From: Escherichia coli
GTDB lineage: Bacteria; Pseudomonadota; Gammaproteobacteria; Enterobacterales; Enterobacteriaceae
Assembly: GCF_030384885.1 (NCBI RefSeq)
Contig: NZ_CP128613.1
DNA length: 64,000 bases
Reading direction: 5' to 3' (one strand)
Numbering within the stretch: the first letter of the stretch is position 1; each line of letters starts with the position of its first letter. The translations under genes were made by a program, and so were the position numbers. This document shows, one piece after another, positions 1,287-1,527 of the stretch. The notes beneath the pieces are model-generated. The model saw nothing but the letters and a program-made list of their open reading frames with translations. It was not told the DNA's origin and searched no databases.

Positions 1287-1373
1287 GACGACTCCCTTTG
1301 ATGAACCGATATTTTTGCTGCTTCACAATGCTTCGCTAAGCGTAATCATCGTTACGCTCTTGTTATAAATGGG

Positions 1374-1392
1374 AATGGTAATCATTATTTTC
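1374..1392. promoter_or_regulatory. Fur-box-like site in the divergent yncE/yncD promoter region
   Basis: aatggtaatcattattttc contains the TAATCATTAT core of the Fur consensus GATAATGATAATCATTATC; yncE is iron-regulated by established knowledge and yncD is a TonB-dependent receptor. Confidence 0.35.
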
Positions 1393-1527
1393 TCAAATGT
1401 GGAGCATTTCTTGCCGTTACGACTACAATTTTCTCAATTACTTAACGTATTGTGCCGTTTCATTTTCCATAAATTTACAATTTCATTACCATGACGGCGT
1501 TTTCCCATTCTTAACCTGGCTTTTTTC

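Follow-up and report, generated by a model that had tools for sequence, protein, structure and literature searches.

A palindrome between yncE and pqqU of Escherichia coli is probably a conserved RNA hairpin in the yncE leader, close to the Fur operator of the same gene

The palindrome that lies between the divergent genes yncE and pqqU (formerly yncD) of Escherichia coli is most probably a conserved RNA stem-loop in the leader of the yncE mRNA rather than a DNA operator, and the nearby Fur box most probably serves as the operator of yncE. The DNA in question is a 64,000-nucleotide stretch of contig NZ_CP128613.1, here called the window, in which the two genes are separated by a 241-bp intergenic region at positions 1287-1527. 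An earlier note on this DNA had pointed to a Fur-like sequence and a separate palindrome within that region, and had read them as iron-responsive control of the gene pair plus a binding site for a second, dimeric regulator. Combining a comparative analysis of the region with published data on Fur, on MarA and on RyhB, the iron-stress small RNA that is itself repressed by Fur, this report assigns both features to yncE, with the palindrome acting at the level of RNA. The region is base-for-base identical to that of K-12 MG1655, and 5411 of the 5426 complete genomes of E. coli contain it.

A PROBABLE COVARYING HAIRPIN IN THE YNCE LEADER

The palindrome had been recorded as a 6-6-6 repeat, gcgtaa-tcatcg-ttacgc, at 1340-1357; it is there as described, and extends to a perfect 7-6-7 repeat, AGCGTAA-TCATCG-TTACGCT, at 1339-1358. 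Taken alone it is not beyond chance, as an equivalent perfect inverted repeat with 7-nt arms and a loop of 3-8 nt arose in 424 of 5000 shuffles (8.5%) and occurs 43 times in the window; it is the comparative data that show it to be real. The comparative set held one genome per species and gave 80 loci encoding YncE relatives, 78 of them with complete upstream sequence, from more than 20 genera that include Escherichia, Citrobacter, Salmonella, Enterobacter, Klebsiella, Raoultella, Kluyvera, Leclercia, Lelliottia and Atlantibacter. With one truncated locus and three deletion-bearing loci set aside, 76 leaders, each spanning Fur box to AUG, were aligned with MAFFT without regard to structure, the alignment containing 73 distinct sequences (rows).

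On this structure-blind alignment RNAalifold predicts, unprompted, exactly the helix that the palindrome would form on the minus strand, with a 5' arm AGCGUAA (1358-1352), a loop CGAUGA (1351-1346) and a 3' arm UUACGCU (1345-1339). Across the 76 leaders, 94.3% of the cells of the 7-bp helix are paired, versus 72.6% with shuffled partners, and sliding the partners by 1-3 columns lowers the figure to 34-53%. Changes on both sides are seen in all seven stem pairs, with 118 double-change cells (38 in shuffles) and a covariation score of 0.727, versus 0.311 in shuffles and 0.11-0.22 in the slid controls. For pairing, double changes and covariation score alike, 0 of 500 shuffles reached the observed value, though it counts against the strength of this result that the shuffles ignore phylogeny, so that the zero counts are not probabilities. 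An alignment artefact is nonetheless an unlikely source of the covariation, given the outcome with slid partners and how many independent pair types there are.

The sequence of the arms changes freely, and there are 58 versions of stem and loop among the 73 rows. Thus, AGCGUAA/UUACGCU in E. coli corresponds to GGCAAAG/CUUUGCC in Enterobacter, CGCAAAG/CUUUGCG in Klebsiella, CGCGGUG/CGCCGCG in Kluyvera and an AGCCGUG/CAUGGC-type pair in Atlantibacter. Read on the yncE-sense strand, 66 stem cells hold G·U or U·G, versus eight that hold A·C or C·A, which are the wobbles of the opposite strand. Because the half-sites vary while their complementarity is kept, and because G·U is tolerated on that strand only, the element is read as an RNA stem on the yncE-sense transcript. 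Across the >20 genera the loop, with a consensus of C-N-A-N-G-A, shows more conservation than the stem, the commonest forms being CCAUGA (35/73) and CGAUGA (12/73). Candidate partners for the loop in RyhB, in the yncE ribosome-binding site and in codons 4-5 were considered by eye and set aside, as each gave matches of 4-5 nt and lacked covariation.

In nine Citrobacter species pqqU and the regulator gene mcbR are absent upstream of yncE, and these same species retain the yncE Fur box, the hairpin and the RyhB site that follows it; because of this retention, the comparison of sequences indicates that all three elements belong to yncE and not to pqqU. The place upstream of yncE at those nine loci is taken by curA and an unrelated 480-aa open reading frame. 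In three genomes of the Pseudescherichia vulneris group the hairpin and the RyhB site are both missing through a single deletion of ~40 nt, and these leaders still carry the Fur box and the Shine-Dalgarno sequence. They amount to a natural 'leader-less' variant, available as a possible comparison.

A scan of positions 1100-1700 with Rfam covariance models returned chance-level matches only (E of at least 2.4), far below the gathering scores. A literature search, of incomplete coverage, found no description of a yncE hairpin or start site and no mapped RyhB site in yncE.

THE FUR OPERATOR AND PREDICTED PROMOTER OF YNCE

The Fur-like string of the earlier note, aatggtaatcattattttc at 1374-1392, is present, but its register is 3 nt off: it scores 5.7 bits, compared with 18.9 bits for GGGAATGGTAATCATTATT at 1371-1389 (a dyad, without strand), which agrees with the consensus GATAATGATAATCATTATC at 15 of 19 positions. 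These scores come from a position weight matrix (PWM) for Fur, 19 bp long and symmetrised, that was built by iterative refinement starting at the textbook consensus. It was trained on 16 classical Fur-controlled promoter regions of K-12, with yncE left out, namely fepA-fes, fepD-entS, fepB-entC, fhuA, cirA, fiu, tonB, exbB, fecI, fecA, fhuE, fhuF, sodA, ryhB, sufA and feoA. A scan with such a matrix had been put forward as a check on the Fur claim, and it bears the claim out, the site at 1371-1389 being the best match in the whole 64-kb window. Its score falls within the range of the training sites in leave-one-out (6.7-20.5 bits) and was reached once when the 241-bp spacer was shuffled 5000 times with dinucleotides preserved. 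The same site is the best PWM match in 78/78 complete orthologous loci of Enterobacteriaceae, with a median of 18.0 bits, and its core, AATGATTA(C/T)(C/T)ATTC, is essentially invariant in the alignments while the surrounding spacer drifts. The second-best match in the window, GGAAGTGATAATGATTTTT at 39660-39678 (16.0 bits), lies inside the coding sequence of hrpA and is probably due to chance.

Fur's control over yncE has been documented in several ways. There is a Fur ChIP peak upstream of the gene (PMC4676285), which belongs to the direct Fur regulon, with a conserved site, in both K-12 and CFT073 (PMC7157518) and is a member of both Fur iModulons (PMC10164565). A western blot shows excess YncE in a fur mutant (PMC5120174), and yncE mRNA rises 16-fold on iron limitation, as seen by RNA-seq (PMC8896160). 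The Fur box was first noted by McHugh et al. 2003, as cited in PMC8896160 and in the Reg-Seq supplement, and the latter states that the site is not annotated in RegulonDB. Hence, control of yncE by iron and Fur is confirmed and was already known; for the operator, the additions made here are its exact register and its family-wide conservation only.

The further suggestion that iron controls the gene pair as a whole stands for yncE, on the strength of the PWM, the conservation in 78/78 loci, the overlap with the predicted -10 element and the literature, and is not supported for pqqU. The putative pqqU promoter, at 1464-1492 on the plus strand, consists of a -35 TTTCCA (1464-1469), a 17-bp spacer and a -10 TACCAT (1487-1492), and is conserved as TTTTCA-18-TAACAT in other genera. 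The Fur box is ~75 bp upstream of that -35, and the only Fur-like match over the promoter itself (1472-1490, 7.0 bits) is no better than those in shuffles. Moreover, yncD/pqqU is reported to be neither Fur-regulated nor iron-induced, and its product imports pyrroloquinoline quinone (PQQ), not iron (PMC7193533; 10.1101/2022.06.07.495086). The region is thus not a Fur-controlled divergent pair; the site serves one arm, in contrast to those of fepA-fes and fepD-entS, which control both directions. In other respects it resembles the canonical Fur boxes of E. coli. Like those of fhuF, ryhB, sodA and fepD-entS, it is a 19-bp AT-rich dyad of comparable score; like Fur boxes on sigma-70 promoters, it overlaps a (predicted) -10 element and its gene is derepressed under iron limitation. 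It also has weaker overlapping registers, beginning at 1365, 1374 and 1377, with offsets of 3 or 6 bp as in Fur clusters (Chen et al., PMC2189734). Unlike canonical Fur targets, yncE encodes a product without a demonstrated role in iron uptake.

The putative promoter of yncE, on the minus strand, comprises a -35 TCCACA at 1398-1403 and a -10 TACCAT at 1375-1380, the latter inside the Fur box. The motif CTCCAC(A/T) is at least 90% conserved across genera and precedes the conserved TAC(C/T)AT by 17 bp, and the arrangement would place the start of transcription near 1366-1367. RegulonDB lists a MarA site at -41.5 of yncEp, as quoted in the Reg-Seq supplement, an annotation that is weak and has no Reg-Seq footprint. 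Only two marbox-like sequences exist in the spacer, centred on 1408 (1399-1417; three mismatches) and on 1449 (one mismatch), so that a MarA site at -41.5 implies a start at ~1367 or ~1407. Both are upstream of the hairpin, and only ~1367 has a credible promoter. Because the conserved -35 and -10 elements and the MarA-derived start sites all lie upstream of it, the hairpin would be transcribed, occupying approximately +10 to +29 of the yncE mRNA. Another candidate promoter, with a -10 TATAAC at 1367-1362, was rejected; its start would fall in the 5' arm, it is without a usable -35, and the hexamer varies between genera. Farther downstream on the same strand, the Shine-Dalgarno sequence AAGGGAG, a direct reading of the sequence that is conserved in the alignment, is at 1292-1298, followed by the start codon at 1286-1284. 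The predicted -10 regions of the two divergent promoters, at 1375-1382 and 1485-1492, contain the same 8-mer, ATTACCAT, in opposite orientations and hence form an inverted repeat.

THE RYHB-COMPLEMENTARY SITE AND THE FOLDING OF THE LEADER

Directly 3' of the hairpin, at 1317-1336 on the minus strand (-50 to -31 from the AUG), is a stretch with complementarity to the single-stranded core of RyhB, GCGAAGCAUUGUGAAGCAGC, which includes GAAGCAUUGUG (1333-1323). The columns GAAGC..UGU..GC of this site are at least 90% conserved, and the point of the leader at which the best RyhB duplex begins is shared by nearly all genera. Activation of yncE by RyhB has been observed by Ribo-seq and with a translational yncE-lacZ fusion (PMC4666370), and PMC8896160 reports that RyhB raises yncE, based on RIL-seq (RNA interaction by ligation and sequencing) chimeras, a green fluorescent protein reporter and quantitative PCR. 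The local duplex with nt 41-59 of RyhB has a predicted hybrid energy of -20.1 kcal/mol, from which the opening of the site (10.9 kcal/mol in the mRNA plus 3.3 kcal/mol in the small RNA) leaves a net -5.9 kcal/mol, in agreement with the CopraRNA value of roughly -5 kcal/mol, at which yncE ranks 834 (PMC7154689). Local duplexes with opening energies were used in place of whole-length duplexes of RyhB and leader, which were unrealistically long.

The hairpin is part of both the minimum-free-energy and the centroid structures of the 85-nt leader, and is found as well in a 111-nt leader. In the minimum-free-energy fold of E. coli, UGUGAAGCA of the RyhB site pairs with UGCAUUUACG of the start-codon region. 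Such pairing would suit an anti-antisense mechanism, but the predicted helix is not conserved, RNAalifold missing it and per-sequence folds being inconsistent, and it was not retained.

As an iron-starvation-induced gene with a RyhB site well upstream of the ribosome-binding site, yncE resembles shiA and cirA, whose leaders are also activated by RyhB, and as in that class RyhB acts positively on both translation and mRNA (PMC4666370, PMC8896160). The likeness ends at the structure, since in shiA RyhB opens a helix that sequesters the ribosome-binding site, whereas no conserved inhibitory helix was detected in the yncE leader; the sole conserved structure there is the hairpin 5' of the RyhB site, which is not one that RyhB would melt. 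A second point of comparison is the ompA-type 5' hairpin.

Stem-loops near the 5' end stabilize bacterial mRNAs and obstruct RNase E, as do the ompA-type hairpin and other 'obstacles to RNase E scanning'. The yncE leader would likewise have a short, stable hairpin near its 5' end, followed by AU-rich single strand, with the stem kept by covariation. It differs in that ~9-10 unpaired nt would precede the hairpin, which is therefore not strictly 5'-terminal, and in the conservation of its loop, for which a purely steric role would have no need.

Several observations weigh against the reading of the palindrome as a leader hairpin, or against linking that hairpin to RyhB. First, the promoter from which the hairpin would be transcribed is deduced from sequence. 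Second, folding energy does not single the hairpin out, the 85-nt leader having a z of -0.93, and with 60 nt of coding sequence appended the 5' region pairs elsewhere and the probability of the hairpin is near 0. Third, the loop is conserved above the stem, and the favoured explanation does not account for this. Fourth, the net interaction with RyhB is predicted to be weak at -5.9 kcal/mol. Fifth, RNAalifold on the leader plus 39 nt of coding sequence gave no conserved helix that sequesters the ribosome-binding site. Finally, when the 5' arm is mutated in silico, opening the RyhB site costs a median of 0.8 kcal/mol more (47 sequences rise, 23 fall), and deletion of the hairpin in silico leaves that cost unaffected, which makes any 'insulator' effect of the hairpin small and dependent on the model.

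ALTERNATIVE READINGS OF THE PALINDROME

Five other readings of the palindrome were weighed, and each is improbable. The one that survives best, itself with only a slight chance of being right, is that a small upstream open reading frame starts in the loop; in E. coli it would read AUG AUU ACG CUU AGC GAA GCA UUG UGA. Most sequences do have an AUG in the loop (CCAUGA, CGAUGA), and E. coli and several Citrobacter species share the 8-codon frame, with its UGA stop inside the RyhB site. On the other hand, the AUG is absent from ~19 of the 73 distinct sequences, including those of other Escherichia (loop CGAAGA), no Shine-Dalgarno sequence precedes it, and neither the length of the frame nor the position of the stop is conserved.

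The original proposal of an operator for a second dimeric transcription factor, for example the GntR-family protein McbR/YncC, does not hold up and is now hardly likely. Although the inverted repeat is a perfect 7-6-7, mcbR adjoins pqqU, and a site at +10 to +29 would be feasible for a repressor, a dimeric protein calls for conserved half-sites, and what is conserved is the pairing; the half-sites vary (AGCGTAA, GGCAAAG, CGCAAAG, CGCGGTG, GACAAAG, AGCCGTG) while remaining complementary. The 66 G·U cells, confined as they are to one strand, would be mismatched half-sites in DNA, and the element lies downstream of the predicted start of transcription. Similar palindromes are not in excess in the window (5 versus 3.0 expected, in a scan of the window rather than of the whole genome), nothing convincing was seen at mcbA, the target promoter of McbR, and the element persists in the Citrobacter species that have neither mcbR nor pqqU at the locus.

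A comparably small chance attaches to the idea that the palindrome is a second Fur-binding element that extends the Fur array. The exact 8-mer GTAATCAT does occur both in the palindrome (at 1342) and in the Fur box (at 1378), 36 bp apart, which is a multiple of 6, and Fur sites are often clustered (PMC2189734). However, the 8-mer is specific to Escherichia, the arms being unrelated in other genera, and the best PWM score in the palindrome is 3.1 bits (1335-1353), which is less than any training site scores and less than shuffles reach on average with their best match (6.3 bits).

Equally doubtful is a stem-loop that acts on the plus strand, be it as a terminator or attenuator or within a long 5' untranslated region of pqqU that overlaps the yncE leader. 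A consensus scan does flag a terminator-like site at 1339-1358 and a promoter-like site at 1322-1349, and yncD and yncE were co-purified by MS2-affinity purification coupled with RNA sequencing (MAPS) of RyhB and listed as a head-to-head pair with possibly overlapping untranslated regions, according to a review (PMC7154689). Against this, an intrinsic terminator is not found on either strand, since the stem on the yncE strand is followed by UAGCGAAG, and on the plus strand the T-run is weak and no gene ends upstream. Each G·U pair of the yncE-sense strand would read as an A·C mismatch on the plus strand (66 versus eight cells), the -10-like AATCAT is made up of variable loop and arm and is not conserved, and the conserved pqqU promoter at 1464-1492 is much nearer to pqqU.

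Least credible of all is a functionless chance inverted repeat, which the frequency of such repeats in shuffles and in the window and an unremarkable folding energy would allow, but which leaves no place for the many independent compensatory changes that keep the pairing across >20 genera while the flanking leader drifts.

A MODEL FOR THE CONTROL OF YNCE

With the palindrome read as a hairpin in the yncE leader, the 241-bp region becomes two back-to-back promoters, and both of the features first noticed in it belong to yncE. Control by iron would then be exerted in two layers, by Fur on the DNA and by RyhB on the leader, of which the hairpin would be a structural part. When iron is plentiful, Fe2+-Fur bound at 1371-1389, where it would cover the spacer and the -10 (1380-1375), would occlude RNA polymerase. 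On iron starvation, as the literature has established, yncE is transcribed, and RyhB, acting through the leader, further raises the level of its mRNA and its translation.

Two roles can be proposed for the hairpin, each with reserve. It might, as a tentative first idea, be a 5'-proximal obstacle that slows the access of RNase E to the AU-rich stretch downstream (AAAAAUAUC) and that keeps its own 3' arm off the RyhB site. Alternatively, and with rather less likelihood, the loop might be specifically recognized by a protein or by another RNA and, together with the RyhB site, form a family-wide post-transcriptional module for yncE. If true, the latter would explain how RyhB activates the gene despite a weak duplex and the lack of a helix that sequesters the ribosome-binding site.

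The reassignment from DNA operator to RNA element matters in practice, as DNA-binding methods aimed at a 'second regulator' of yncE or pqqU would be pursuing what is an RNA element. The YncE protein, periplasmic and immunogenic, is encoded in the core genome and induced on iron starvation; it is a vaccine and diagnostic candidate in E. coli and Salmonella, and its gene is among the few targets that RyhB activates. The hairpin and the RyhB site together make up a defined leader module of ~50 nt (1358-1317) that is amenable to mutation. The analysis also sets the control of yncE, which answers to iron, apart from that of pqqU, which concerns PQQ uptake and has its own promoter and a marbox-like site, despite the spacer that the two genes share.

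THE PQQU SIDE OF THE REGION AND THE FLANKING GENES

The genes on either side are as had been claimed, i.e., a gene for a periplasmic beta-propeller protein and a gene for a TonB-dependent receptor, in divergent orientation. Based on the open reading frames and the RefSeq annotation (of identical DNA in the case of yncE), yncE occupies 225-1286 on the minus strand and encodes a 353-aa, 7-bladed propeller protein, and pqqU occupies 1528-3630 on the plus strand and encodes the TonB-dependent PQQ receptor (10.1101/2022.06.07.495086, PMC12124388).

The better of the two marbox-like elements, ACGGCACAATACGTTAAGT at 1440-1458 on the minus strand, has one mismatch to AYNGCACNNWNNRYYAAAY and is 5 bp upstream of the predicted pqqU -35. 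As the block TTAACGnAATGTGCnGTTA it is conserved in most genera and degenerate in Klebsiella and Raoultella; its position is compatible with a site that may control pqqU rather than yncE. A second block, ACATGTTCCATTTGGTTCG, is found ~15-45 nt upstream of the pqqU ATG and is strongly conserved in most non-Escherichia genera. It is missing from Escherichia, which has a shorter leader, and it has no counterpart at 1493-1527 of the window; judged from this distribution, it could be a regulatory element of pqqU that was lost in E. coli.

The start of pqqU itself is unusual in the window. Within codons 5-37 (1542-1637) there are 19 nucleotide differences from K-12, clustered in the first ~110 nt of the gene, and 10 of the first 60 residues of PqqU differ, where the signal peptide ends and in the TonB-box region (EQTMIVTATPQG versus EQTMIVSAAPQV). 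When the 5426 complete E. coli genomes were searched with the 421-nt stretch that contains this divergent start, just 3 of the 5412 matching records agreed at 99% or more. The N-terminal allele therefore looks like a rare or recombinant variant of what is a phage-receptor gene.

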